The notes: a model not told the origin generated them from the letters alone. DNA of 25,773 nucleotides from Promethearchaeota archaeon (GCA_004524535.1 SDNY01000048.1:1-25773); one strand, 5' to 3'. Shown: positions 4,122 to 20,810, counted from the first letter of the stretch. Translations and numbers: made by a program.

Positions 4122-4817
4122 ATGTTTAATTACAAAGATTTCGGGCTGGAAAAAGGAAATTTATATGAAATTTTGGCCATAACTTTTTCAAGAGCCAATA
4201 AAGAGGATATTATTGAGCCTAATGCAGCATGTATGGGGATTAAAGTAAACGAGAAGAATATAATTCAAATTACTCCTTTTCATAATACTACCACTTATAG
4301 AAATTTAAAAGAAAATGGTTATTTAGTCATAAATTTTGTCAATGATATATATCTATATGCTCTTGCAGCATTAAAGCCCCCAGAATATTCAAGTGAATTT
4401 CTATTAAATCATTTGATATATTTGAGTCTTAAAAAAAGAGGAAGAAATAAATTCCGAAGTTTTCCTGTATTAAAGAGCTCATGGGGGATTCTTATAGGGG
4501 AAACAACCAAGGAAATTGAAAATATTAAAAAAGATAATTACGGTGAGTCATCAAGTTCTACTTTTGAAATAAAAATATTTTATAGCGAGAAAAATAAAGA
4601 GTCATTTAAACTGTTTAATAGAGCGGAAAATTTAGCACTTGAAGCTATTATATTAGCAACAAAATTAAAAGTTGCGAAGAATTCGAATAATAATGAACTT
4701 TATGAGAAGTTAATAAAACAGATTCAATCCTACATGGAAACAATTAGAAGAATTGGAAAAAATCAGAATGCCTTAAAAGCGATTGAACTAGTAGGCAAAT
4801 ATATCGATAAAAATTAA
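4122..4817 (+). CDS. DUF447 family protein (split-barrel plus helical domain; associated with methanopterin gene clusters)
   Basis: YEILAIT..PNAACMGI, TTTYRNL, VINFVND, and C-terminal FNRAENLALEAIILATK typical of DUF447; adjacent to mptD/mptG. Confidence 0.8.
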   Translation: MFNYKDFGLEKGNLYEILAITFSRANKEDIIEPNAACMGIKVNEKNIIQITPFHNTTTYRNLKENGYLVINFVNDIYLYALAALKPPEYSSEFLLNHLIYLSLKKRGRNKFRSFPVLKSSWGILIGETTKEIENIKKDNYGESSSSTFEIKIFYSEKNKESFKLFNRAENLALEAIILATKLKVAKNSNNNELYEKLIKQIQSYMETIRRIGKNQNALKAIELVGKYIDKN

Positions 4818-4820
4818 AGT

Positions 4821-5207
4821 TTATTTTATTTTTTCAATAAACATTAGGGGAAATTGCATATTTCCAATCCATTCGACTTTTGCCAAGATTTCCACGGATT
4901 CATATTCAATTATTAACTCAGCTCGGATAATTTTTCCTGTAATTTCATCATAATCAAATTGATTTGATTTATCTCCTAAAATTTTTCCCCTATCTAAATT
5001 GATTTTTACAGATTTTACAAAGGGTTGACAAGAAATAGAAGATTCAATTCCTTTCTCTATATTTTTTAGAATATTCTCATCATTTGAGATAGGAATACCA
5101 CATAGAATATGATAAAGTGCACCAATTTTAATGCCCGATTCAAAACAAGCTCGTTCTCTATCAGTTAAATCAGGTGAAAAATAGATTTTTTCGTTATTTT
5201 TTGACAT
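4821..5207 (-). CDS. mptD: Archaeal dihydroneopterin aldolase
   Basis: TDRERACFESGIKIGALYH, IESSISCQPFV, FDYDEITG and C-terminal FPLMFI match the MptD (MJ0408-type) family; starts 6 bp downstream of mptG. Confidence 0.88.
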   Translation of the reverse strand: MSKNNEKIYFSPDLTDRERACFESGIKIGALYHILCGIPISNDENILKNIEKGIESSISCQPFVKSVKINLDRGKILGDKSNQFDYDEITGKIIRAELIIEYESVEILAKVEWIGNMQFPLMFIEKIK

Positions 5208-5213
5208 TCAAAA

Positions 5214-6221
5214 TCAATTATCCAATATTTCTATTTTTGCCCCTGTGTTATTGGGTTTACAAATGAAAAAATGTCCACCTATTTCATTTATGAAATCTTC
5301 AACAGTATTTTTTAATTTTTCTGCCTCTTCATCCGATTCTGTAATACCTATAATACTTGGGCCGAAAGAAGACATACCATAAGCTTTTACGCCATAATCT
5401 TCAAAAAATTTTAATAAATCTCTTACAACTTGGTTCTGTAAACTAATTTCTATTGCTTTAAAACCAATACTTTGAATTCTTTTCAATCCTTCACCAAAGC
5501 AGCTAAGATCATTTTTCAGTATACCTGGTAAGACTTTCATAATAATTTGATGTGAAACCTCATTGACCTCATCCCTTGGAATTGGAGTATGCTTCTTAAA
5601 AATTTTAATTTCTTCTTTTCCATTAGCTCCAGGTCTTACATCAGGAATTACTAATACAAAGCGCCAATTTTCTGGTATGTCATACCTAGATATGGTTAAT
5701 GCCGGATTTGCCAATGTTGAGGCGGAGGAAGGTGAAAAGTTTTCTTTTTCTTTTCCTATTCCATAATCATGCCCCCCGTCTAATATAAATCCACCAGTTT
5801 CAAACCCACGCCATCCAATTCCAGAGGTGCCACCGCGTTCAACCATCGAGGTAATTTCTTCAATTGGAATTTCTATGTTTTTAATTTGTGATATTGCTGT
5901 ACCAATTGCTAAACTTAGTTGAGTTTTTGAGCCTAATCCAACGTGGCTAGGATAATATCTTTTTAAATTGAAATGAAAATTTTTATTGCTTATGTGAAAA
6001 AGTTTGAAAATCCTTGATGCTTTTTGGTTAATTACTTGGACAGATTCTCTATAATATCTATTACATTCAATGGTAAATTTATCTGCATGATTGGAAACTT
6101 CTAAAACTACATTCGGTTTGTCAATCATAAGACCAATTCCGCCATCAACTCTACCAGTGTACCCATTCTCATCAATCAATGATAAATGTATTCTACAAGG
6201 TGTTGTTATTCTAACTTTCAT
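5214..6221 (-). CDS. mptG: Beta-ribofuranosylaminobenzene 5'-phosphate (RFA-P) synthase, GHMP kinase fold
   Basis: TPCRIHLSLID..GRVDGGIG; PSHVGLGSKTQL; RGGTSGIG; GGFILDGGH; GMSSFGP; PNNTGA. Confidence 0.93.
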   Translation of the reverse strand: MKVRITTPCRIHLSLIDENGYTGRVDGGIGLMIDKPNVVLEVSNHADKFTIECNRYYRESVQVINQKASRIFKLFHISNKNFHFNLKRYYPSHVGLGSKTQLSLAIGTAISQIKNIEIPIEEITSMVERGGTSGIGWRGFETGGFILDGGHDYGIGKEKENFSPSSASTLANPALTISRYDIPENWRFVLVIPDVRPGANGKEEIKIFKKHTPIPRDEVNEVSHQIIMKVLPGILKNDLSCFGEGLKRIQSIGFKAIEISLQNQVVRDLLKFFEDYGVKAYGMSSFGPSIIGITESDEEAEKLKNTVEDFINEIGGHFFICKPNNTGAKIEILDN

Positions 6222-9241: not shown

Positions 9242-10078
9242 TCAGAATGTTTTTTCATTTTTTTTAATTGATAGATTCATGGATCCACTACGAAAGCCTT
9301 CAATATCAATGGTAATATAATTAAAGCCAAGATCTTTGAATTTATTTTTGATTTTTTGTAGATTTTCCTTGGATAAAATTTCTGGTAAATCAGATTTTAG
9401 GAATTCAATGCGTGCTAGACTTTCATCGTGAATTCTTACTCTCAATTGCTTTAAATTAAAGGTTTGCTTTAAAAATCTTTCACCTTCTCTAATTAAATTT
9501 AATTTTCTCTCGTTTATGACTTGATTGTAAGGGATTCGAGAAGAGAAACATGCCATTGAAGGTTTGGATTGGACATCTAAATTATAATATTTACAAATCT
9601 CTCTTATTTCTTGTTTATTAATGTTATATTCGATATATGGTGTAAAAATATCTAATTCTTTTAAGGCTTGAAGTCCTGGCCTGAAATCTTGAAGATCATC
9701 AATATTTGAACCATCCAAAATTATATCAAAATCAAAATCATCTCTAATTTCGATTATCTCGTTATATAATCCTTTTTTGCATATGTAACAACGATTTATT
9801 GGATTTAATTTAAAATCTTCATCATCTAAAGGATTTCGTTCAAGAATAATTTGAGATATATCATACTTTAGGGCAAATTGGCTTGATAACTCAATTTCTT
9901 CTTCAGGGTAAAGAATAGAATGCTCAGTAATAAGTAAAGTATCTTTTGCATATTTTTTTGAAAGAAAAGCTAAAAGTGTACTATCCACGCCTCCTGAGAA
10001 GGCTACTATCACTTTTTTATTTTTTAGAGAGGATATAAGCCTTTCAAGTTTACCTTCAAGATTTTTTGACAAATTCAT
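9242..10078 (-). CDS. larE: ATP-dependent sulfur transferase LarE (PP-loop)
   Basis: PP-loop SGGVDS; NPINRCYICK; DGSNIDD..DFRPG; KPSMACFSSRIPY; QLRVRIH; GFRSGSMN. Confidence 0.93.
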   Translation of the reverse strand: MNLSKNLEGKLERLISSLKNKKVIVAFSGGVDSTLLAFLSKKYAKDTLLITEHSILYPEEEIELSSQFALKYDISQIILERNPLDDEDFKLNPINRCYICKKGLYNEIIEIRDDFDFDIILDGSNIDDLQDFRPGLQALKELDIFTPYIEYNINKQEIREICKYYNLDVQSKPSMACFSSRIPYNQVINERKLNLIREGERFLKQTFNLKQLRVRIHDESLARIEFLKSDLPEILSKENLQKIKNKFKDLGFNYITIDIEGFRSGSMNLSIKKNEKTF

Positions 10079-10278
10079 CTATATTCTATTGAATATAATT
10101 GGTTTTAAGTTAAAAAAATTTGAGATTATATAAATTAAAAAAGAATATAATTAGTGATTTAACATATTATTGAAAAAATTTTTATTTATATAATATATAT
10201 TCTGTAAAAAAAAGCAATAAAATTAGCTTTTTATCTCGTAGAATACTTGAAATAAAAAAGAGATTTATTTTTATATAT

Positions 10279-11715
10279 ATGGTTAAAAAAAGCAAATTAA
10301 ATATAGATAAAAAAGCTCGACGAGCTTTAGGCGTTCATTTAACTTCGGTTGATATTTTTTTAAGATATATTTTTCCAGAAATAAAAGATAAATTGAAGGA
10401 GTATATCTGGATTGATTTATATGCTGGAGAGGGAAATTTACTTTTACCTATTTTAAACGAAATATCACCAGAAGAAAGAGTAAATTTTTTTGAAAATCAT
10501 ATTTATCTATTTGATGTTCAGGCTGAGATGGTACATAAGTGTGTTAAAAACGCTAATTCATACGGGATCCCTATTGAAATAGCAAAAAAAAATATAAAAA
10601 TCCGAGATAACTTGGAAAACTTTCCTGAATTTCTGAAAAATAATGAACTTCCTATTTTCCACATTACAAATCCTCCTTATTTATATTTAGGATATATTAG
10701 GAAGCATAAAGAAACTCAAAAATATCTTAAATACTTCAAAGCTGATAATGATGGTTATCAGGATTTATATCAAATTGCCATGATTAATGATTTAAGAAAT
10801 AACATTGAAAACCTAATATATATTATTCCCTCTAACTTTTTATTTGGAGCGTCAGTATCTAATAAATTTCGACAAGATTTTTTGAAATATTATAAAATTC
10901 TTAAAATGGTTATATTTGAAACAAAAATATTCGAATTCACAGGAACGAATATTTGTATTGGCTTTTTTAAAAGAAAAAAAGATCCCAAAGTTGAGCCAAT
11001 AGAATTTAACGGAGTAAAAATTAAAAATAAAGAAGATTTAATATCTAAAAATTATATATTAAATCCAAAATTCAAATATCGTGCTGGTTCTGAATTTGAA
11101 GAGTTCCTTGAGAATTATCGAACACGTAATCCATTAAAAGTAAAATATTATTTATTAAAAGAAGAAGTGGCAAAAAATAAAGGAACTAATCAAATTGCTG
11201 TTATTGATGCAAATAAATATAGAAATAACCAATATAAAAGGCTAAATCTCCAAGTAGAGGATATTTTAAAAGAAAAAATCGAATCAAATATATTGTATGT
11301 TCAAACTGTAGATAAAGGTTCAATTGAAGGTCGAGTTGGGCTTGGTATAATAGCAGAAGATTTTGATGTAAAAGGGATTTATGTGTCCTCTAATACTTAT
11401 CGTACACATCCTATACAAATTTTTTTAGAGCCTCAAATTTCAATTGAAGATCAAATGCTATTAAAGGACTATTTTAATTTTACGTTAGAATATTTTAGAA
11501 AAGAATTAGACAGTGAATTTTTAACAACCTATAAATATTCCAGTGCTGTATACACTAGAAAGTATCTAGGTTTGACTCAAGTAAGAGGATTAATTGAAAC
11601 TTTTCCAATTTCAATAATTAAAAGAGATTTAAAAATTAAAAAAAGCTTTAAATCTGCTATCAATAGACATGAATTTAATGAGATTTTAAAGATTTTAACG
11701 GTTTTAAGTAATTAA
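10279..11715 (+). CDS. Amino (probably N6-adenine) DNA methyltransferase, gamma motif order, apparently orphan
   Basis: Motif X (GVHLT), motif I (DLYAGEGNLL) then motif IV (ITNPPY), DLYQIA, IYIIPSNF, FEFTGTNICI; long C-terminal putative target-recognition region. Confidence 0.85.
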   Translation: MVKKSKLNIDKKARRALGVHLTSVDIFLRYIFPEIKDKLKEYIWIDLYAGEGNLLLPILNEISPEERVNFFENHIYLFDVQAEMVHKCVKNANSYGIPIEIAKKNIKIRDNLENFPEFLKNNELPIFHITNPPYLYLGYIRKHKETQKYLKYFKADNDGYQDLYQIAMINDLRNNIENLIYIIPSNFLFGASVSNKFRQDFLKYYKILKMVIFETKIFEFTGTNICIGFFKRKKDPKVEPIEFNGVKIKNKEDLISKNYILNPKFKYRAGSEFEEFLENYRTRNPLKVKYYLLKEEVAKNKGTNQIAVIDANKYRNNQYKRLNLQVEDILKEKIESNILYVQTVDKGSIEGRVGLGIIAEDFDVKGIYVSSNTYRTHPIQIFLEPQISIEDQMLLKDYFNFTLEYFRKELDSEFLTTYKYSSAVYTRKYLGLTQVRGLIETFPISIIKRDLKIKKSFKSAINRHEFNEILKILTVLSN

Positions 11716-12591
11716 GTCAGTCTTTGCAATTCTTTTTGCTTCTGGAAGTCCTTTATGTAAATATTTAAATTTCCCCGTAGTAAGACCATACACAATATAT
11801 GCCGGAATAGAAACAACTATGTTAATTGCTGGTATCAGCATTACTGTGATAACATCTGAAGCTCTTCCTTCAAAACCCATGAAATACACCAACATTGTAA
11901 TTAAAAATACGATTGAAGAAATACCGGCATAACCTTTTAAATAACTGTTATATCGTAAATGTATAGGTTCAATTTCAAATAGCCGATCTAAACGCTCACT
12001 TTGACCTTCTAAGCCAGAATAATGAATTAATCCGGAATCTTCAAGAGTCCACCCTATTGACCATAGTCCAATAACAATTGGCAATATAAAAATAACTGTG
12101 ATTGACATTATCACCGTAGTGACGAACCTAAGATCAAGTCCTTCACTCTCATAAATATGAACTAAATTAGTATTAATAAACATTTTAGCTGCACTCTCTG
12201 GTAGAAGAGGTAAAATAAAAGCAAGAAAACCCAATGTCAAGAGAAAAATGTATATTCCTCGTTTGAGGAATTTTTTTGGTGAATAAATAATTGGCACCGT
12301 TTCAATGTATGCATTTTCAAATTTTTTGTATATGGCTTTTTTTCCTTTTAAAAAAATGGGAGTAAATATACGAGGAAAAAGAAGAACTGTAGTTATTGTT
12401 AAGATCGTCGGTAAAATAAAAAAAATCAAGAACATATGAATAGTTTCGGGAAGGCCAGTTAAGGGTACAACCCCTGCCTCTCTTGATGATGTGAATATTC
12501 TAATAGACATAGTAATAAATAAGATTATACAAATAATGAGAAGTACTAGGATGAATTTCTTTTCTTTTTTCTCTAAGTTCATTTTAATCAT
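11704..12591 (-). CDS. Hypothetical integral membrane protein (about 6 TM segments)
   Basis: Long ORF with repeated hydrophobic stretches and a polar loop WTLEDSGLIHY...IEPIH..YNSYLKGYAGIS. Start uncertain (TTG 12594, ATG 12591 or 12582). Confidence 0.7.
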   Translation of the reverse strand: MIKMNLEKKEKKFILVLLIICIILFITMSIRIFTSSREAGVVPLTGLPETIHMFLIFFILPTILTITTVLLFPRIFTPIFLKGKKAIYKKFENAYIETVPIIYSPKKFLKRGIYIFLLTLGFLAFILPLLPESAAKMFINTNLVHIYESEGLDLRFVTTVIMSITVIFILPIVIGLWSIGWTLEDSGLIHYSGLEGQSERLDRLFEIEPIHLRYNSYLKGYAGISSIVFLITMLVYFMGFEGRASDVITVMLIPAINIVVSIPAYIVYGLTTGKFKYLHKGLPEAKRIAKTDLIT

Positions 12592-12708
12592 CAATTTAAG
12601 GTTTTAATATAATAATTTAATTTTGTTTTGAATATTATATAATTCTTTAGTTATTTGATTAAAAATGTTGTTCTAAATAATTTCGAATTATTTGAATTTA
12701 GCATATAT

Positions 12709-13614
12709 TCACGATAAACTCGCAAAAATAAAGGCTATTAATCCAAGAAACGCCCCAACTTTTAAAATTAAACTGATTTTTTTAAAATCTTTTCTTTCTA
12801 AATTTTTGCGCAACGAGAGAATTATCGCAAAAATTATGGCTATTAGTCCAAAACTCATGAAAATAATGAATAAAGTTGGATTTATAATATTTGTAAACAG
12901 AGGCAAAATAAAAAAGACAACTGCTAAAATTTCAAACAATAAAGAAAAAATGATTGCTTTTTTAGTTCCAAGTTTAATTGCTAATGTTTTAACATCCTTA
13001 GTCTTATCGCCTTCAATATCCTCGCAACCCTTAACAATTTCACGAGAGAGTAATAAGAAAAATGAAGTCAAAAAGAAGAAATAGATATAAATAGGAATAG
13101 CTAAACCATTTAAGACTGCTCCATAAATAAGCCCTATAGAAAATGAAATGCTAACGATTATATTGCCAATAAAACCTTGTTTCTTTCCCCAAGCGGAATA
13201 AAGCCATCCAATAAAACCAAAGAAGAGTGCCAATATTATGTTAACAATGCCTAACGAAAATATTAAACTGTGAATAATCGATATCATTATGCCTATACCA
13301 AGCGTTAAAAAGAATAATATCTTGGCTTGTGTTAAGCTTACAGAGTCACTCGGGATTGGTCTATCAGGTCGATTTATATTGTCAATTTCAACATCGTAGA
13401 TGTCATTAATGATCATTCCAGAGCCGGCAATAAAAAAATATGTTAACAAGCCCAAAATAATGTTTATTAATAAAATGTCACATGGAATTCCTGTGCGGGT
13501 GTTTAAAAGACCTATTAGGACAGTAAGAGAACCCATAAGACAATTTACTGGTCTCATTATTATAATACTGCCAGCTAAGAAGCTTTTTTTTGGTTTAATT
13601 GTTGAATTTTCCAT
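12709..13614 (-). CDS. Digeranylgeranylglyceryl phosphate (DGGGP) synthase, UbiA prenyltransferase family
   Basis: MRPVNCLM; first Asp-rich motif INDIYDVEIDNINRPDRPIPS; YSAWGKK; GNIIVS; second motif REIVKGCEDIEGD; directly downstream of GGGP synthase. Confidence 0.9.
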   Translation of the reverse strand: MENSTIKPKKSFLAGSIIIMRPVNCLMGSLTVLIGLLNTRTGIPCDILLINIILGLLTYFFIAGSGMIINDIYDVEIDNINRPDRPIPSDSVSLTQAKILFFLTLGIGIMISIIHSLIFSLGIVNIILALFFGFIGWLYSAWGKKQGFIGNIIVSISFSIGLIYGAVLNGLAIPIYIYFFFLTSFFLLLSREIVKGCEDIEGDKTKDVKTLAIKLGTKKAIIFSLLFEILAVVFFILPLFTNIINPTLFIIFMSFGLIAIIFAIILSLRKNLERKDFKKISLILKVGAFLGLIAFIFASLS

Positions 13615-13716
13615 GAGTAAATTAATGAAAATTTGCTATATTTTAATTATTTCGATTCAATCAAATTTCAAATAATAGAAATAAAGAGAGCTTTATTTAA
13701 AAATGAATGATCTCTC

Positions 13717-14535
13717 TTATTTTTTGAAATTCTTTTTAGAAGAAACTCTTTTGCCCTCGTCTTTAATTGCATCAATTATTACTTTTAAAGACGCTCCATT
13801 ATCGTTTAAAATATTAGTTTCTAAGAAAGTTCCCATAACAATAATATCAGCACCCGCTTTGACTAATCTTCTTGCGTCTTCTTTACTTTGAATGCCTCCA
13901 CCAGCAATAATAGGAATCTTTATAACTTTTTTGCATAATTTTAAGATTTCGGGAGGAATACTCTCACTGCCAGACCCAGCTTCCAAATAAATTAATTTAA
14001 AACCAAACATTTGTGCAGCTAAAGAGTAAGCGGCAGTTAATTTTGGCTTTTTTCTAGGTAATAATTTCGCATTACTGATCCACCCTGCGGTTCCACCAGG
14101 CTCGATTATTAAATAACCAGTTGATATGTATTCAAGATTTGCCAGCTTAACAGTATAAGAACCAATAGCTTGCTGACCTATTATAAAATAGGGATCTGTT
14201 GAGTTTAATAAAGACATAAAAAGGATAGCATCAGCTTTTGGTGATACGTTAGCAATACCTCCAGGAAAGATAATAATTGGTACATCTACTTTATTTTTAA
14301 TTGCTGAAATTGTATCTTCAACAAATCTTTGATCGAAAGCAGTACTTCCTCCGATTAATATTGCGTCTGTCCCAGCATCTACAGCAAGCTTCGCCATTTT
14401 TGCTGCGTCAATAGGACCTTGTCGGATTGGATCTGGATCAATTAAGGAAAAATGAAGAGCCCCATCATTATTTAGTTTATTTATGATATACTCGTAGGTG
14501 TTTGTTGAGGTTTCATCCAGTAAGATATTAACCAT
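13717..14535 (-). CDS. Geranylgeranylglyceryl phosphate (GGGP) synthase, group II
   Basis: HFSLIDPD; AILIGGS; IIFPG; FMSLLNS; GYLIIEPG; YLEAGSG; AGGGI; GADIIVMGT. Confidence 0.95.
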   Translation of the reverse strand: MVNILLDETSTNTYEYIINKLNNDGALHFSLIDPDPIRQGPIDAAKMAKLAVDAGTDAILIGGSTAFDQRFVEDTISAIKNKVDVPIIIFPGGIANVSPKADAILFMSLLNSTDPYFIIGQQAIGSYTVKLANLEYISTGYLIIEPGGTAGWISNAKLLPRKKPKLTAAYSLAAQMFGFKLIYLEAGSGSESIPPEILKLCKKVIKIPIIAGGGIQSKEDARRLVKAGADIIVMGTFLETNILNDNGASLKVIIDAIKDEGKRVSSKKNFKK

Positions 14536-14548
14536 AAATTACACGTTT

Positions 14549-15967
14549 TTAAATATTTTTATTTTCTTTATGTATACTCTTCCCAAATGATGTAAATTTA
14601 ATTTTATTATAAATATTTTTAGTATATTCTTTCCAAGCGTCAAATTCACTAATTTCTTCAATATTTTTTGGAAAGTTTTTATAATGGCTTCGGAGATCGT
14701 TCATTTTAATACGAAGATAATTTAAATCTAATAATAATTTTGGATTGGAAATACCTTTAATGGCTTTCGTTAGCATATCCATAATAGATAATTTAATACC
14801 CCCGGTTGCAGCAATTTCTAATATCTCATCACCAGATAATAAATCTTTTTCTAATCCAAAATTTAAAGACTTATTTGAAAGTTTTTGTAAGGCAATCCTT
14901 AATAAATCGAGAGAAGCAAACTCAGCTCCAAAACTATTAATAATCTTACAATTATATTCCCACAATTTCTTTAAAGAATAATCTTCATTTTGAATTGCAT
15001 CTAAGGCTGTCAAAGCAGCATAGTAGCCCGCTCTCATTGAAGGATCTATCCCTCCACCATGAAGAGGATTGACATGGCAAGCAGCATCCCCTACAAACAT
15101 GATCCCATTGTCAGCGGACGACCAAATTGGTCTTCTTACGGACACAACACCCCCTCCTGTGGAAATTACTTCATATTTCTTAGTCTTTATAAACTCATTA
15201 AACACATTTTTTTGATAGTATTCTTTTACTTGACCTTTATAATCCATAAACATACCTAGACCTATATTGACTGAAGATTCGTTCCTAGGAAAATACCAAA
15301 TATATCCACCTGGTGCTTTTTCTTGATCCATTATAATTGTAATGTAGTCAGGATCGTTAACTTGTTGATCTTGGGGATTAAATTTCACAATTTCTCGATA
15401 ACATAAGATACAATCTTCTTTTGAAATTTCTTTTTCGATAATTGAGCTTTTTATTTCTTTTCTTAAAGGAGAATAGAATCCACTTGCATCTATTATTATC
15501 TTAGAGTTAAGATCTATTTTTTCACCATTTTTCACTCGTATTTTTAAACCCGAGACAGAATTATCTTTGTAAAGTAAATCTAAAGCGATAGTGTTATCTA
15601 AAAATTGTTTAACCCCAGCATCGAGAGCTTCATTTAATAATCTTTGCCCAAATTCTAACCTATTTATTTCATAACCAGCTTGCTTAGGGTCAGTTAAGGT
15701 TATACATTTATTTAGATTGGGAGAATATAATTTTGCTCCCTTTATATGACAAGAGAGCTCATCTTCCTTAGGATGGTTTATATTTAAAATGTCAAAAATC
15801 TCAGTGCCAACAGCATCACCGCATATTTTATTCCCGATCTGACTTCTTTCTTTTCTATCAATAAGACAAACATCTAATCCTTTTTGAGCAGTAAATCTCG
15901 CAGCAGTAGTTCCTCCGGTACCGGCTCCAACAACGATTACATCAAAAGATTTTTGAAAACTTTCCAT
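14549..15967 (-). CDS. Geranylgeranyl reductase (digeranylgeranylglycerophospholipid reductase family)
   Basis: FAD motif DVIVVGAGTGG; GNKICGDA; IDASG; PxxYxWxFP signature APGGYIWYFP; VGDAACHVNPLHGGGI. Start moved to ATG 15967 (MESFQ), which removes the overlap with the upstream gene. Confidence 0.92.
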   Translation of the reverse strand: MESFQKSFDVIVVGAGTGGTTAARFTAQKGLDVCLIDRKERSQIGNKICGDAVGTEIFDILNINHPKEDELSCHIKGAKLYSPNLNKCITLTDPKQAGYEINRLEFGQRLLNEALDAGVKQFLDNTIALDLLYKDNSVSGLKIRVKNGEKIDLNSKIIIDASGFYSPLRKEIKSSIIEKEISKEDCILCYREIVKFNPQDQQVNDPDYITIIMDQEKAPGGYIWYFPRNESSVNIGLGMFMDYKGQVKEYYQKNVFNEFIKTKKYEVISTGGGVVSVRRPIWSSADNGIMFVGDAACHVNPLHGGGIDPSMRAGYYAALTALDAIQNEDYSLKKLWEYNCKIINSFGAEFASLDLLRIALQKLSNKSLNFGLEKDLLSGDEILEIAATGGIKLSIMDMLTKAIKGISNPKLLLDLNYLRIKMNDLRSHYKNFPKNIEEISEFDAWKEYTKNIYNKIKFTSFGKSIHKENKNI

Positions 15968-15983
15968 ATTCTTGTTAATAATT

Positions 15984-15998
15984 AAAAAATAAAAAAAA
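15984..15998 (-). terminator. Possible oligo(U) terminator/attenuator between the kinase and GGR genes
   Basis: Minus strand reads T8-A-T6, starting 7 nt after the kinase stop. Archaeal terminators are U-tracts, but the background is very AT-rich. Confidence 0.35.
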
Positions 15999-16005
15999 TT
16001 AGAAT

Positions 16006-16791
16006 TTACAAATAGTATATTAAAGTTAAAAGGTAAATTATTATAGTTGTACAAATTGGGACAGTTAAATCATCTAAAGTGCTTGGCGAGATTAATTCAA
16101 TTATTGTAGCTAATAAAGCGGTTATAACCGAGTATAGTATTATAATATTCCAAGTTAATGGTTTCTGGTGTAGTGTCATAAAAATACCAAAATACCAAAA
16201 CGACCCAAGACATAATAAAAATGCTGAACCGAACATAGTTGCTGAACCTAATACAGTTCTTGCAGAAGTCCATGGGAGTTTAATTTTAATTCTACCCCAA
16301 TTTTTTCCTACTATTGAAGCAAGTGTATCAGCAACAATCATTATTAGAATTCCTGCAATTGGAAAATATAGTTGATGAGGAGAAAGCAAAACAAAAACTA
16401 AAATCAATACTGTTATTGAAATACAATAATTCAATGGTCCCATTAAGCGTCCACTCTTCTCCTCAGCTTCCTCGCCAATACTTTCATATAATTCTCTTAA
16501 CTGTTTAACACTACTTTCTTTCGAACTAAAATAAACCAATAGAGTTAAGCTTAAAGCGATAAAAATAGCATATATCGGCCAAATGAAAAAGGGTACAAAC
16601 AATACAACTAAACCCGCAAATAAATGAACCATTTTCCTTGCAGTAAATTTTGAAATTTTATCTTTCTTTTTTAGCGCAACGGGGATAAGAATCGTCATGA
16701 ATACGTATATGTAGCAGACTGCTATCATTAACATATCAAATAAAAAATCTGATATAACGTAATTTTTGGGCGGCAATACCTGTAATATCAT
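16006..16791 (-). CDS. CTP-dependent polyprenol/diacylglycerol kinase (Sec59/Dgk1/Vte5 family), membrane protein
   Basis: RKMVHLFAG (RKxxH); GPLNY; ADTLASIVGKNWG; RTVLGS at the K[S/T]xEGS position; IELISP..LDDLTVP at the DNLxxP position; multiple TM helices. ATG 16791 or TTG 16800. Confidence 0.85.
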   Translation of the reverse strand: MILQVLPPKNYVISDFLFDMLMIAVCYIYVFMTILIPVALKKKDKISKFTARKMVHLFAGLVVLFVPFFIWPIYAIFIALSLTLLVYFSSKESSVKQLRELYESIGEEAEEKSGRLMGPLNYCISITVLILVFVLLSPHQLYFPIAGILIMIVADTLASIVGKNWGRIKIKLPWTSARTVLGSATMFGSAFLLCLGSFWYFGIFMTLHQKPLTWNIIILYSVITALLATIIELISPSTLDDLTVPICTTIIIYLLTLIYYL

Positions 16792-16895
16792 TAAGATCAA
16801 TTATTTCTTTAATAAAATTTGCAATAATTATAGGTAATAAAAATGTTTTATTAATTTTTTTAAAAGGTTTCAATAATTCGAGGAAAGAATAATTT

Positions 16896-18101
16896 TTAAG
16901 CATTCATTGGTGGTGTCGGTGGGACCTCATTATCAATCCACACATCTTTGATTGGATGTGTCCACCAATGGTTGGGTATATTCGCATAAGTTCCATATTT
17001 TTCAAGCCCCCTTTCAAATGCTTGGATATTTTCACTAGACACTCGAATATGATCTTCTTGTGGGTAAAAATATGCACCAAAACCACCATTTGGGGTACCA
17101 AGATTACGCATCATATGCCATACTTCACGCTCACAATCTTCAGGACTAGCAAGAGGATATATTCTCTGGATATCCAAACATGCGAAAAAAGCGATCTTAC
17201 CCCTATATTTTGCTAAATCATTATATCCAGTCATTCTAGGGCTGTCTAGTTCAAGAGCATCCAAACCCCATTCTATAAATATTGGAATTAGGGGATCTAT
17301 TTGTCCACAACAATGGAGCATAAAATCACATCCTAAGTCATGCGCAGTATCAATTAATTTCTTATAAATTGGCTCATAAAATTCTTTAAAGACTTTTGGA
17401 GACCAATAGGGTCCTTTTTGTGTTCCCAAGTCGTCATATAATAGGAATCCATGAGGTTCAAGCCCATAATTTACAAAGGATTTTTCGAATTTAATATATT
17501 GGTTAGTTATATATTTTAATAATTGCTTGAGATCATTTTTACGACGATAATGATCGATTAAATAAGTATCGAACCCTCGCATTTGACCGGTCATTTGGGA
17601 TGGACCTAATTCAAGATTTGCCATACGATATTTTTTTTGTCCTAATCTGTTTTTTAGATCCAAATAAAAGGAATAACTACTCTCATCATCATAAATGGGT
17701 GTGTAATGTGAAAGGTACTCATCCATATCTTTATAATCAAGAAGTCTCGGTTCGCCCGGATGACCCATAGTATCTATTCCAGCTCTCTTCCATATGTTTC
17801 CCCATTCGTCAATTTCTTCTCTTTCTATCTTTAGCCAATTATTTCTTTTATATATGGGATTATCCTTAGCCCAATCGGGCATATCCCATTTCCATAGACC
17901 GGATTTAATTATAAGTTCATGCACAACATGAGGAAATAATCCATTTTCAGATTCGTGATGTCCAGGTTGCCATTGAGGAGGTGGAATTCTTGCCATCATG
18001 AAAACATCACTTTTGCCAAAAAACTTCATAACAGGCACTCTATCTGGATTCTCAAATTTAAGGGCTGCTTTAACCCGTTCTATAGAATTAATATTTATCA
18101 C
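16896..18101 (-). CDS. UroD/MtaA-CmuA superfamily TIM-barrel protein
   Basis: SIERVKAALKFENPDRVPV; DEWG; MRGFD; YDDLGTQKGPYWSP..FKEFYEP; LHCCG; GGFG. GTG start. Confidence 0.85.
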   Translation of the reverse strand: MININSIERVKAALKFENPDRVPVMKFFGKSDVFMMARIPPPQWQPGHHESENGLFPHVVHELIIKSGLWKWDMPDWAKDNPIYKRNNWLKIEREEIDEWGNIWKRAGIDTMGHPGEPRLLDYKDMDEYLSHYTPIYDDESSYSFYLDLKNRLGQKKYRMANLELGPSQMTGQMRGFDTYLIDHYRRKNDLKQLLKYITNQYIKFEKSFVNYGLEPHGFLLYDDLGTQKGPYWSPKVFKEFYEPIYKKLIDTAHDLGCDFMLHCCGQIDPLIPIFIEWGLDALELDSPRMTGYNDLAKYRGKIAFFACLDIQRIYPLASPEDCEREVWHMMRNLGTPNGGFGAYFYPQEDHIRVSSENIQAFERGLEKYGTYANIPNHWWTHPIKDVWIDNEVPPTPPMNA

Positions 18102-18241
18102 TCTTTGAAAAGATTTATAGTTCCTTTATATTATAATCATTAAAAATTATTTTATTTTCGTAAAATTATTTATAATTTTTATTTTAATAAATCTATAGCT
18201 GGAAATTTAAATAAATAAAATAACGAGAAAAAAATCTTATT

Positions 18242-19693
18242 ATGAAAATATTTTTAATTATATTCGATACTTTGAGAAAAGATTATGCAGGTAAAACTTA
18301 CGGCAATTCTTGGATAAAAACCCCCTACTTTGACGAGTTTGCTAAAGATTCACTTGTATTTGATAACGCATATCCGGAGTCTTTACCTACAATCCCGGTT
18401 CGAAGAGCAATACATACAGGAATTCGTACTTTTCCTTTTAATCATAAAAGACCTCAACTTAGAACTGATGATGTAGTTACAATTCCGGGATGGCACCCAA
18501 TACCTCCACATCAGACCCATTTAGCGGAATACATGAGAAAATTTACTTTCGTTACTTCTTTTATAACTAGCACGTACCACCAATTTAAACCAGGAATGAA
18601 TTTCCATCTTGGATTTCACCAATGGAACTGGATTAGAGGGCATGAAAAAGATAAATTAAGGGCAAGATACAGGGAAGGGGGAGCGAAACTAAAGAAGAAA
18701 ATGAAAGAATTTATTGCGGATCAAAATCCAATGGCCAAAGCATATCAAACATTTTTCTTAAAAACCTACTTTAGTAATATGCAACATAGAAAGAGTGAAG
18801 AGGATTATTTTCCTGCCCAAACTTTTAAAAAGACAGTCGAATTTGTTAAGGATACTAAAAAAGATAAAAATGTAATGGCTGTTGTTGACGAGTTTGACCC
18901 GCACGAGGTCTGGGATCCTCCTGAGAAATATCTTGATTTATACGTTGATAAGAATTATACAGGCAAAAAAGTAGTTCAACCTGCTTATAGTGAGACGATT
19001 GATTATCTTACCGAGGGAGAGTTAAAATATATGAGAGCTTCTTATGCTGGAGAAGTTTCTATGTGCGATAATTGGTTTGGCTATTTCATTGAAGAATTAA
19101 AAAATTTGGGTTTATACGATGACTCTTTAATTATTTTAATTTCCGACCACGGACATAGTATTGGAGATCATAATGCTACGGGTAAGATTCCAATGTTTAT
19201 GTATCCAGAACTTGTAGATATCCCTTTTATGATTAAGCCCCCAGGTAATTTAAATGGTCCAAAAAGAATTAAAAAATCTTATGTCTACAATCATGACATT
19301 TTACCTACTATTTTCGGCTTTTTGAAGAAAGAGAAGCCGGAAGTGTTCGACGGCGTAGATCTTTCAATCTTTCTTGATGATGGGGATCAATTAATAGAGG
19401 ATCGTGATTATATTACATGTGGATTTAGTATTTGTACTTTGTATAAAGACGATCGCTACGCACTAATCACTACAAATGATAAATCTTATCAGAAATTATT
19501 TGATTTATCTAAAGATCCAGAATGGAATGTTAATATAGCAAAAGATAATCCAGATATTTGTGATGAGCTATTTGAAAAAATCGAAAGAGATGCAAAAGGG
19601 GATCTTCTTTTAGAAGATAAACATGCAGAGGAACTTCAAAAACTCATAGATCAATTAAAGAATTGGTATGGACAAGATAAAGACACTGATTAA
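18242..19693 (+). CDS. Sulfatase/alkaline-phosphatase superfamily hydrolase with Thr at the nucleophile position
   Basis: IIFDTLRKD; IKTPYFD; YPESLP-TIPVR-RAIHTG at the [C/S]xPxR site; FDPHEVWDPP; YAGEV; ISDHG; DILPTI; LFDLSKDP. Confidence 0.88.
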   Translation: MKIFLIIFDTLRKDYAGKTYGNSWIKTPYFDEFAKDSLVFDNAYPESLPTIPVRRAIHTGIRTFPFNHKRPQLRTDDVVTIPGWHPIPPHQTHLAEYMRKFTFVTSFITSTYHQFKPGMNFHLGFHQWNWIRGHEKDKLRARYREGGAKLKKKMKEFIADQNPMAKAYQTFFLKTYFSNMQHRKSEEDYFPAQTFKKTVEFVKDTKKDKNVMAVVDEFDPHEVWDPPEKYLDLYVDKNYTGKKVVQPAYSETIDYLTEGELKYMRASYAGEVSMCDNWFGYFIEELKNLGLYDDSLIILISDHGHSIGDHNATGKIPMFMYPELVDIPFMIKPPGNLNGPKRIKKSYVYNHDILPTIFGFLKKEKPEVFDGVDLSIFLDDGDQLIEDRDYITCGFSICTLYKDDRYALITTNDKSYQKLFDLSKDPEWNVNIAKDNPDICDELFEKIERDAKGDLLLEDKHAEELQKLIDQLKNWYGQDKDTD

Positions 19694-19715
19694 TGTATAA
19701 AAATTAAACAGATTA

Positions 19716-20810
19716 ATGATAAAATTAGAAATGGACGCGCAAGAACGAGTTTTAACCACAGTAAATCATGAAGAACCTGATAGGGTTCCCGCCTTCGAAA
19801 GTGCTTTTACAAATAATACAATTGTAAAGCATTATGGGTGTGATCCTGGTCGATTAGGAAATTATAAAAGTATTTACGAGTTTTCTCGTAGAGTTGGATT
19901 AGATTTAGTTCTAAGTTATGTTAGTAATTATCCTAGAGAATTATTTAAGGGTGAGAGAGGATTCATAGATGAATATGGAAAGATAATGAAATTGGAGCCA
20001 TGGAAAGATGGAACGCAAATATTGGCATATCATGGCGGATCTTTCAAAAACTTTGAAGATTATGAGAGTTTCAAGCAGCCAGATCCCAATTTAAAAACAC
20101 GCATGGATAATTTCTTATTAGGGCGAAAAATCCAAAAAGAGATGAACAATGAAGTATTCTCAATTCCCGCAACCGGTTCTTTAATGGAATGTGCATGGGA
20201 GGGATTTGGATTAGAAGTATTTTCTAGGATATTGGCTCGACCCAAACAAGCAAAAAAAGTATTTGATGATCGAGGTAAATTTACGCTTGAAATGGTAAAA
20301 ATTTTAGCTGAAAATGACGCAAAGATTGTCCTCTTATGGGATGATTATGGTTGGAAAGGAGGCTTATTTATGAGCCCCAGAAATTATAGAAAGTACGTGT
20401 TCCCGTGGATAAAACAAATATGTGATGCAGCTCATAAACGCGATTGCAAAATATTATTACATTCTGACGGGGATTTAATGGAAATTTTCGAGGATATTAT
20501 AAAAAGTGGTGTTGACATCTTAAATCCTATAGAATCTACAACTGCTAATCCTGAATACGATATTTTCAAATTAAACGAGAAATATGGGGATAAACTAACT
20601 TTTGCGGGTAATTTAAGCCCAATAATGTTAGCAATGGGAGAGATTTCTGAAATTGAAGCTTACGCAAAAAGATTAATTCGTGAGTTAGCTCCGGGAGGAG
20701 GATACATTTTTAGTTCTGGACATAGCATTAATCCCGCTGTTACAGTTGACCGATTTGAAGCAATGCACAATATTAGGAGAAAATTCGGAAATTATCCAAT
20801 CAAAATATAA
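19716..20810 (+). CDS. UroD/MtaA-CmuA superfamily TIM-barrel protein
   Basis: ERVLTTVNHEEPDRVP; DEYG; WDDYG..GLFMSP; LHSDGD; LNPIE; AGNL; PGGGYIFSSGHSI. Alternative start at ATG 19731. Confidence 0.88.
   Translation: MIKLEMDAQERVLTTVNHEEPDRVPAFESAFTNNTIVKHYGCDPGRLGNYKSIYEFSRRVGLDLVLSYVSNYPRELFKGERGFIDEYGKIMKLEPWKDGTQILAYHGGSFKNFEDYESFKQPDPNLKTRMDNFLLGRKIQKEMNNEVFSIPATGSLMECAWEGFGLEVFSRILARPKQAKKVFDDRGKFTLEMVKILAENDAKIVLLWDDYGWKGGLFMSPRNYRKYVFPWIKQICDAAHKRDCKILLHSDGDLMEIFEDIIKSGVDILNPIESTTANPEYDIFKLNEKYGDKLTFAGNLSPIMLAMGEISEIEAYAKRLIRELAPGGGYIFSSGHSINPAVTVDRFEAMHNIRRKFGNYPIKI

Follow-up and report, generated by a model that had tools for sequence, protein, structure and literature searches.

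A candidate isoprenoid-alcohol kinase gene conserved beside the ether-lipid genes of one Promethearchaeota order

In plants, the prenol kinase VTE5 stands upstream of the UbiA-type prenyltransferases VTE2 and ChlG and alongside the geranylgeranyl reductase ChlP, and in yeast the CTP-dependent diacylglycerol kinase Dgk1 makes a product that feeds a CDP-lipid synthase in one step. Here we consider a gene predicted to belong to the same superfamily, called KIN in what follows, which lies in a 25,773-nucleotide stretch of Promethearchaeota DNA (SDNY01000048.1, the window) next to three genes of archaeal ether-lipid synthesis: a geranylgeranyl reductase (GGR), a phosphoglycerol geranylgeranyltransferase (GGGPS), and a UbiA prenyltransferase of the digeranylgeranylglyceryl phosphate synthase (DGGGPS) type. 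Among the described relatives, PfPolK of Plasmodium is a CTP-dependent farnesol/geranylgeraniol kinase with 8 transmembrane (TM) helices and a modelled Arg-Lys-His clamp, as described in PMC10849223, and for the dolichol kinase DOLK a CTP-site motif DxxAxxxGxxxG-x8-KKTxEG is given in PMC13586052. The family of VTE6, a phytyl-phosphate kinase, is COG1836/pfam01940, also called DUF92 (as described in PMC9782597, PMC3223725, and PMC5898192), and a fusion of a Sec59-like COG0170 domain with COG1836 has been described in Methanosarcina, for example Mbar_A3310 (Makarova et al. 2015, PMC5898192). As for enzyme activities, work on Sulfolobus (Ohnuma 1996, as cited in PMC9385802) reported both a geranylgeraniol kinase and a geranylgeranyl phosphate kinase, and the case that archaea in sediments recycle relict isoprenoid chains goes back to 2010 (as cited in preprint 10.64898/2026.05.15.725266). 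The literature we searched tied no archaeal gene to prenol kinase activity or isoprenoid recycling, and held no relevant report on an Asgard GGGPS-DGGGPS gene cluster, an Asgard phytol kinase, VTE6 with DUF92, or an archaeal phytyl-phosphate kinase VTE6, subscription papers and bioRxiv supplements not being visible to these last searches.

The best explanation we can offer as a whole, which we would put a little short of an even chance, is that KIN phosphorylates isoprenoid alcohols as an accessory kinase, probably with CTP, and belongs to the short 8-helix type represented by VTE5, FOLK, and PolK. Its broader part, that KIN phosphorylates a lipid alcohol and is tied in function to the synthesis of ether lipids, is one that the sequence comparisons lead us to believe rather than doubt, by a small measure; its narrowest part, a C20 prenol (geranylgeraniol or phytol) as the substrate, is our preferred guess from the same comparisons, and a tentative one.

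The ether-lipid cluster and the reach of its conservation

The window corresponds to contig C132 in a genome of 3.66 Mb (G000; 99% complete, 4.4% contaminated), and the closest named relatives of its genes are found in metagenome-assembled genomes of Promethearchaeota (Lokiarchaeia-type). In our labels G, C, L, and P stand for genomes, contigs, loci, and proteins; f1 is the family of the window, f2 its sister family, and f5, f7, f12, and so on are other Asgard families. KIN, GGR, GGGPS, and the DGGGPS-type UbiA gene are co-oriented on the minus strand and separated by 38, 13, and 102 bp, just as an earlier note, made from the window's sequence, had read them, and the core ether-lipid set is thus present and adjacent. 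By profile, the three lipid enzymes can be securely assigned at family level. GGGPS (PF01884, 6.3e-55) passes both of its NCBIfam cut-offs (TIGR01769, 244.7 bits against 161.55; NF003198, 302 bits). GGR (PF22578, 1e-17) passes TIGR02032 (202.5 bits; cut-off 158.8) and falls under NF041080 (408 bits; cut-off 580); its longest open reading frame (ORF) runs from 14549 to 16054, and the internal ATG at 15967 gives a 472-aa protein whose residues 7-455 align with positions 1-442 of NF041080. The UbiA protein (PF01040, 1.9e-36) has as its top NCBIfam models NF009523 (189 bits) and NF009521, the DGGGPS model (158.7 bits), both under their equivalog cut-offs. For KIN an alternative TTG start lies at 16800, three codons 5′ of the ATG (ORF 16006-16800).

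GGGPS is the sole PcrB-family gene of the genome, the next-best matches there being just 26.5 and 22.7 bits, and the cluster is therefore best regarded as the main backbone-assembly locus and not as a duplicate set for salvage. The earlier note had seen in it a candidate salvage pathway, a term that has to be given up insofar as it implies a dedicated cluster. The same note had placed CarS, geranylgeranyl diphosphate (GGPP) synthase, and glycerol-1-phosphate dehydrogenase (G1PDH) outside the window, which is correct, the remaining window genes being unrelated. CarS lies on contig C101 (PF01864, 3.2e-36; NF003114, 148.1 bits against a cut-off of 148), and the genome's single polyprenyl synthase lies on C34. 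The genome search for egsA that the note had called for returned no canonical egsA/G1PDH from any contig (the top NF002022 score was 28 bits; cut-off 413). Among five iron-containing alcohol dehydrogenase paralogues that were considered, none is G1PDH-like beyond ~28 bits; divergent G1PDH genes are reported in all Loki genomes in the account of Manoharan et al. (2019, PMC6737245).

How far the arrangement is kept was assessed in 53 related loci, one per species genome, which tblastn with the window proteins split into 41 archaeal-type and 12 bacterial-labelled loci. Downstream of KIN on the same strand, GGR follows in 38 of the 41 archaeal-type loci, GGGPS as well in 36, and all three genes in 34. 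Some of the incomplete loci are so for want of sequence (L045 and L051 stop at a contig edge, and the end of the contig truncates KIN in L060), only a nearby DGGGPS is missing from L009 and L020, and in L055 and L056, both of family f1, KIN is truly unlinked. Locus L022, labelled "Candidatus Nanopelagicaceae bacterium" (Actinomycetota), is a full Lokiarchaeial cluster that lies in the tree almost atop L023 ("uncultured archaeon"), and its contig is probably mis-binned or mislabelled.

On a wider sample, 149 of 201 genomes have a KIN homologue (E<=1e-10), and among 20 regions of ~18 kb examined around such homologues, ether-lipid linkage was seen in two, one in a genome of the same genus and one in G162, of the sister family f2. 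The order in G162 is GGGPS-DGGGPS-KIN-GGR, and since all four genes are kept together despite the rearrangement, selection on the association can be argued for, rather than mere inheritance. At the other loci, 16 from other Asgard families and the remaining 2 of the 3 from f2, no such linkage was seen within ~9 kb. Thus the linkage, whose absence the earlier note had named as a ground for dropping its proposal, is conserved within the clade, and the synteny that it had proposed to check across Asgard and other archaea holds for the family and order of the window and breaks down in the other families: it is a lineage-specific trait of one order, not an Asgard-wide one. The proposed bearing on Asgard membrane evolution, with a parallel to Dgk1 and Vte5, is not borne out, there being no special tie of the arrangement to these eukaryotic enzymes in the results. 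An arrangement confined to one order, in a kinase family widespread in bacteria and archaea, speaks to lipid recycling more than to eukaryogenesis, and it says little about eukaryote origins.

Two further observations define the standing of KIN within the cluster. First, all four genomes of genus g3 (89-100% complete) are without a KIN match at E<=1e-10; their GGR-GGGPS-DGGGPS trio is intact, and the 3-7.8 kb upstream of GGR are free of KIN. KIN is therefore accessory and dispensable, in agreement with the earlier statement that the de novo route needs no such kinase. The other KIN-less genomes of the family are less telling, two ending their contig at GGR and one being without the whole locus. 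Second, in the 12 bacterial-labelled loci (L010-L019, L024, and L028; Syntrophomonadaceae and Atribacterota) KIN is 54-64% identical to that of the window, and its neighbours are bacterial, with RecC, a sigma-54 activator, and a histidine kinase among them. A 97-row tree unites these 12 rows (SH-aLRT 99) and nests them in a larger clade, supported at 98, whose other members are of Promethearchaeota type, and a transfer of KIN from archaea to bacteria is likely on this topology, which leaves the exact sister group unresolved. A convergent UbiA gene faces KIN in 9 of the 12 loci, with top NCBIfam models of the DGGGPS type (NF009523, 216 bits; NF009521, 186 bits); a GGR-like gene lies upstream in 2 of 12, and a PcrB-family gene was found elsewhere in 3 of the 5 bacterial KIN genomes searched. 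The whole looks like an acquisition of archaeal-type lipid genes by bacteria.

Whether KIN is read from the same message as its neighbours is a separate matter. In archaea, oligo-T tracts end transcription, and A/T-rich boxes that lie 25-30 nt before a start codon serve as promoters. After the KIN stop codon, the spacer to GGR carries a T8 run and then a T6 run, so that the U-tract noticed there earlier is real, and it has counterparts: across 37 linked loci, where the spacer has a median length of 50 nt, runs of at least five T occur in 30 and runs of at least six in 20. The spacer might end transcription as an archaeal oligo-T terminator, might supply GGR with an A/T-rich promoter element, or might do both, and transcription of KIN may be in part independent of the three genes that follow or separate from theirs; co-transcription of the four would be an assumption, and in view of the T-runs "conserved cluster" is therefore safer wording than "operon". 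A scan for sigma-70 promoters and hairpin terminators, of a bacterial type not designed for archaea, gave 25 promoter-like sites against 25.9 expected and no hairpin terminators.

Family, motifs, and fold of the KIN protein

KIN itself matches nothing in Pfam or NCBIfam even at E<=10, and nothing in the Protein Data Bank (PDB) by sequence or by family profile; its placement comes from its relatives, its motifs, and its predicted fold. Of the 497 relatives found, several bear the names "diacylglycerol/polyprenol kinase family", "dolichol kinase", or "phytol kinase" in their sources. An exhaustive search gave 821 cluster representatives at E<=0.001, and among the 68 full-length ones that were aligned, PF01148 is matched by 10 (best E 1.8e-7) and DUF92 by 1. 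Invariant across this alignment are R52, H56, D155, G182, E232, and D240. The first two belong to an RKxxH motif (R52-K53-M-V-H56) that matches the clamp of PfPolK as described in PMC10849223, and D155 opens a nucleotide motif DxxAxxxGxxxG (D155, A158, G162, and G166) that matches the core of the DOLK CTP-site motif as given in PMC13586052. Beyond G166 the stretch ARTVLGS keeps R, T, and G, with Leu for Glu and a spacing of x10, not x8. The same RTVLGS is found in the two closest orthologues of the window's KIN (L008 and L009) and in P0124, against 34 other orthologues that retain R(T/S)xEGS and two, L055 and L056, with Ile (residues ~176-184). As judged by this alignment, the Glu of an otherwise conserved T-x-E-G is lost in the window's genus.

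The AlphaFold (AF2) model built on the 68-sequence alignment (pLDDT 94.7, pTM 0.90) has eight long helices. Its best solved counterpart, the cytidylyltransferase TmCdsA (4q2e), is found by Foldseek with a probability of 0.98, at an E value of 1e-2 and a TM score of only 0.30, and is superposed with a VIA Z of 8.6 over 190 residues (root mean square deviation, rmsd, 6.0); CarS (5guf) follows with a Z of 7.1 over 109 residues (rmsd 3.7), and by sequence KIN has no match to the CarS profile PF01864. Apart from CdsA and CarS, the top fold matches include no lipid enzyme, and the Z values of both overlap the range of unrelated helical bundles, and the fold evidence is therefore corroborative only. 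KIN has both the Arg-Lys-x-x-His clamp and the 8-TM core by which short prenol kinases may be recognised, going by the descriptions in PMC10849223 and by the model. Taken together, the family-level matches, the motifs, and the weak fold match support membership of KIN in the CTP-transferase/polyprenol-kinase superfamily. Thus the label "polyprenol kinase" that KIN had been given holds for the superfamily, at family level, and lacks a direct profile match for the protein itself; kinase activity and CTP as the donor are what we infer from that membership.

More can be said from the Asgard homologues. Family f5 has the KIN homologue fused, as the first half of a protein of ~530 aa, to a C-terminal DUF92 half (PF01940, 4e-49, residues 264-519), and by match coordinates the two halves share a single frame of 523-557 aa in at least 16 of 21 f5 genomes. 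In a 57-row tree, KIN, the short (~250-290-aa) Asgard homologues, and the DUF92-fused N-terminal domain form one clade (SH-aLRT 99), from which the genome's own longer paralogues are excluded. KIN is in this way shown, at the level of sequence phylogeny, to be orthologous to the domain that other Asgard archaea have in fusion with DUF92 or paired with it.

Substrate, second phosphorylation, and competing readings

If the preferred reading is right, KIN would phosphorylate a free C20 prenol of the membrane, geranylgeraniol or phytol, to its monophosphate; a putative second kinase would supply the diphosphate; GGGPS and DGGGPS would join the chain to glycerol phosphate; and GGR would then saturate it. 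The preference for a C20 prenol derives from the short 8-helix architecture together with the orthology to DUF92-fused domains, and from the persistent pairing of KIN with a UbiA enzyme that uses prenyl diphosphates, which outlasts the transfer to bacteria.

The difficulty lies with the second kinase, which the earlier proposal that geranylgeraniol or phytol is recycled to GGPP would need as much as ours. No DUF92 match was found in the window's own genome, nor any real match in the 43 genomes searched in its order (40 of f1 and 3 of f2); the sole f1 match listed (1 of 40) is the KIN gene itself, at 25.8 bits and under the cut-off. The 5 bacterial KIN genomes searched are likewise without DUF92. 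Isopentenyl phosphate kinase (IPK), as a substitute in the window's genome, stays under its cut-off as well (NF040647, best 51.6 bits against 120). Among other Asgard families DUF92 is frequent (f5, 20 of 21; f7, 38 of 43; f12, 17 of 19; f13, 3 of 3; f14, 7 of 7; f19, 6 of 6; f22, 9 of 10), and hence the lineage with KIN in its lipid cluster is the lineage without the usual second kinase. Three explanations remain for the absence: a second enzyme that is not recognised as such, direct use of the monophosphate, or a core-lipid substrate that takes a single phosphate. Moreover, the DUF92 family has been linked to uppS, that is, to long-chain polyprenols and not to C20 chains, in the account of Makarova et al. 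(2015, PMC5898192). These points weigh against a C20-prenol kinase of ether-lipid synthesis, and with them go the missing profile match and weak fold match of KIN, its lost Glu, the unlinked loci within f1 and beyond it, and the possibility of separate transcription.

Because the second kinase is missing, a Dgk1-like archaeol kinase has to be kept in play. KIN would then phosphorylate, in one step, the glycerol hydroxyl of archaeol, digeranylgeranylglycerol, or geranylgeranylglycerol; the product, archaetidic acid (digeranylgeranylglyceryl phosphate, DGGGP) or geranylgeranylglyceryl phosphate (GGGP), is a direct substrate of CarS or DGGGPS, and lipids that had been stripped of head groups or scavenged could re-enter synthesis with no second kinase at all. 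That the superfamily is able to take a diradylglycerol is shown by Dgk1, and a one-step reaction fits the absence of DUF92 from all 43 genomes of an order most of whose Asgard relatives have it. Further encouragement comes from the longer paralogues. The genome has three of these, of 359, 369, and 317 aa with N-terminal extensions, and the 359-aa paralogue lies 341 nt downstream, on the same strand, of a gene for a radical S-adenosylmethionine (SAM) protein that aligns over nearly the whole of NF045702, the model for tetraether synthase (Tes), at 442 bits (cut-off 450; E 2.4e-132). A Tes-like gene (at least 75% identity) and an orthologue of the paralogue (at least 47%) share contig and strand at a distance of 0.35-2.5 kb in 22 of 27 sampled f1 genomes, and are unlinked in both of the non-family genomes that hold both (G201 and G214). 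The pair is an independent tie of this kinase family to archaeal membrane-lipid enzymes, and it suggests that the family may act on assembled core lipids. Even so, we consider a core-lipid substrate for KIN unlikely: the literature searched held no archaeal member with such an activity, CarS, which would consume the product, is unlinked, the bacterial module pairs KIN with a prenyl-diphosphate-using UbiA and not with CarS, and KIN is orthologous to domains fused with the phytyl-phosphate-kinase family. Radical-SAM genes next to the unlinked KIN genes of f2 were also considered as Tes and rejected, being of B12-binding types, and the neighbourhood of the other two paralogues, on contig C87, holds no informative genes.

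A dolichol or polyprenol kinase of the Sec59/DOLK kind, making dolichyl or polyprenyl phosphate for N-glycosylation, would owe its position among the lipid genes to shared isoprenoid metabolism (GGR saturating dolichol, for example) or to inherited synteny. It draws on the name "dolichol kinase" that several sources give to KIN orthologues, on a CTP-site motif whose core is the one defined for DOLK in PMC13586052, and on the placement of archaeal COG0170-like domains nearest Sec59, with uppS as a conserved neighbour of the DUF92 family, in PMC5898192; moreover, homologue L077 adjoins two GT4 glycosyltransferase genes, and the 16 loci examined in other Asgard families are all without ether-lipid linkage. 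Several results make this reading an improbable one all the same. KIN is lost throughout the sampled genomes of g3, the three longer paralogues could fill the role of dolichol kinase, and KIN has the short 8-helix form of a prenol kinase, against ~15 TM helices for DOLK as described in PMC13586052. Against it also stand the cohesion of all four genes in the rearranged cluster of G162 and the company of a DGGGPS-like UbiA that KIN keeps in bacteria. Weakest of all is the idea that KIN is no kinase and instead a divergent cytidylyltransferase of the CdsA/CarS kind, which would activate a particular (for example, saturated) archaetidic acid to CDP-archaeol: CdsA and CarS are the best matches of KIN among solved structures, the Pfam link of its family (PF01148) is named for cytidylyltransferases, as is, automatically, the nearest ESM Atlas cluster ("cytidylyltransferase family"), and CarS itself lies outside the operon, but the genome already has a canonical CarS, KIN lacks the CarS profile and carries at its N terminus the RKxxH clamp described for the kinase PfPolK (PMC10849223), and g3 does without it, all of which makes the idea very improbable.

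An extension that would combine several of these elements is that two paralogous CTP-type lipid kinases serve two membrane stages, KIN with the diether genes and the 359-aa paralogue with Tes. The pair would re-phosphorylate prenols, archaeol, and the cores of glycerol dialkyl glycerol tetraethers, thereby returning lipids that were scavenged or had lost their head groups to synthesis with no need of a VTE6-type second kinase. We regard it as a long shot; if true, it would give the sedimentary lipid-recycling hypothesis a genetic basis. Returning to the preferred reading, an isoprenoid-alcohol kinase with a C20 prenol as substrate, its confirmation would mean that isotope-based estimates of growth from archaeal lipids need correcting, and use of archaeol by KIN would instead make it the first counterpart of Dgk1 in archaea. 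In any case, KIN is a concrete and cheaply testable candidate, a gene of sediment Lokiarchaeia conserved next to the sole ether-lipid cluster of its genome, dispensable in one genus, and apparently exported to bacteria with a DGGGPS-like gene.

Flanking genes and comparison with described systems

The features discussed here are collected in Table 1. At its far end the cluster meets a methylase-like gene, which is kept there in 29 of the 41 archaeal-type loci at 61-92% identity. The 296-aa membrane protein between that gene and DGGGPS has a counterpart in none of the 53 related loci, and therefore looks like a genome-specific insertion. On the KIN side, the sulfatase-family gene is common only to the closest relatives (L008, L009, and L058), which puts this flank outside the conserved cluster. 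Further off in the window, three genes together resemble a pterin-cofactor group with no relation to the lipid set. Around the unlinked Asgard homologues, a gene for an HD/HDIG phosphohydrolase of ~190 aa adjoins the KIN homologue or lies one gene away from it in 7 of 16 loci (L078-L080, L082-L084, and L086), and one lies two genes from KIN in the bacterial locus L012; the TIGR00295 family was matched in 2 of 4 HD proteins scanned, and these HD-domain neighbours of the Asgard homologues gave no functional lead. In L083 a GGPP-synthase-like gene converges on the KIN homologue.

Table 1. Coordinates and descriptions of the features in the window and of the paralogue pair on contig C106.
Feature	Position	Strand	Description
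KIN	16006..16791	-	261-aa polytopic membrane protein, ATG start at 16791; predicted short-form member of the CTP-transferase/polyprenol-diacylglycerol kinase superfamily
KIN-GGR spacer	15968..16005	-	38 nt, with T8 and T6 runs
GGR	14549..15967	-	Digeranylgeranylglycerophospholipid/geranylgeranyl reductase, FAD-dependent, 472 aa
GGGPS	13717..14535	-	Phosphoglycerol geranylgeranyltransferase, 272 aa
DGGGPS-type UbiA	12709..13614	-	Prenyltransferase, 301 aa
KIN paralogue	C106 (L100) 9300-10379	-	359 aa
Tes-like gene	C106 (L100) 10721-12310	-	529 aa
Membrane protein gene	11704-12594	-	296 aa, multi-pass, no family match; between DGGGPS and the methylase-like gene, 12-nt overlap with the latter
Methylase-like gene	10279-11715	+	478 aa, weak N6-DNA-methylase match (PF02384, 1.9e-5), no NCBIfam match; converges on the end of the lipid cluster
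Genes upstream of KIN	16896-20810		Two URO-D/MtaA-like genes (401 and 364 aa) and a sulfatase-family gene (483 aa)
Putative pterin group	4122-6221		DUF447, archaeal dihydroneopterin aldolase, and GHMP-kinase-family genes

Among described systems, the closest likeness is to VTE5, Arabidopsis FOLK, and Plasmodium PfPolK, which from their available descriptions are, like KIN, small and polytopic with ~8 TM helices, an Arg-Lys-x-x-His clamp, and a DxxAxxxG motif; some KIN orthologues are annotated in their sources as phytol kinase, the activity of plant and cyanobacterial VTE5. The differences are that the order of KIN is without the VTE6/DUF92 partner, that KIN is compared with these enzymes by motif description, having no direct Pfam match, and that the acceptor pathway is tocopherol synthesis or prenylation in their case, against the archaeal ether lipid proposed for KIN. 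The Sulfolobus activities offer an archaeal precedent for prenol salvage, in a different phylum and with no gene assigned in the citing text (PMC9385802). Sec59/DOLK belongs to the superfamily in which KIN is placed at family level, shares with KIN the core of the CTP-site motif and the name "dolichol kinase" given to some orthologues, and, as far as it is described, differs in its ~15 TM helices, whereas KIN has 8 long helices in 261 aa, is dispensable in one genus, and is linked to genes for C20 ether lipids and not to glycosylation genes. The one-step scheme of yeast Dgk1 would fit the missing second kinase, although the substrate of KIN would have to be an isoprenoid diether, and the CarS gene that corresponds to the next step is unlinked. 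Finally, the COG0170-COG1836 fusions described by Makarova et al. (2015, PMC5898192) recur as the same fusion in Asgard family f5, with an N-terminal half that groups with KIN; in contrast, the lineage of the window has only the first half of this pair, without DUF92, and has it moved beside GGR, GGGPS, and DGGGPS.

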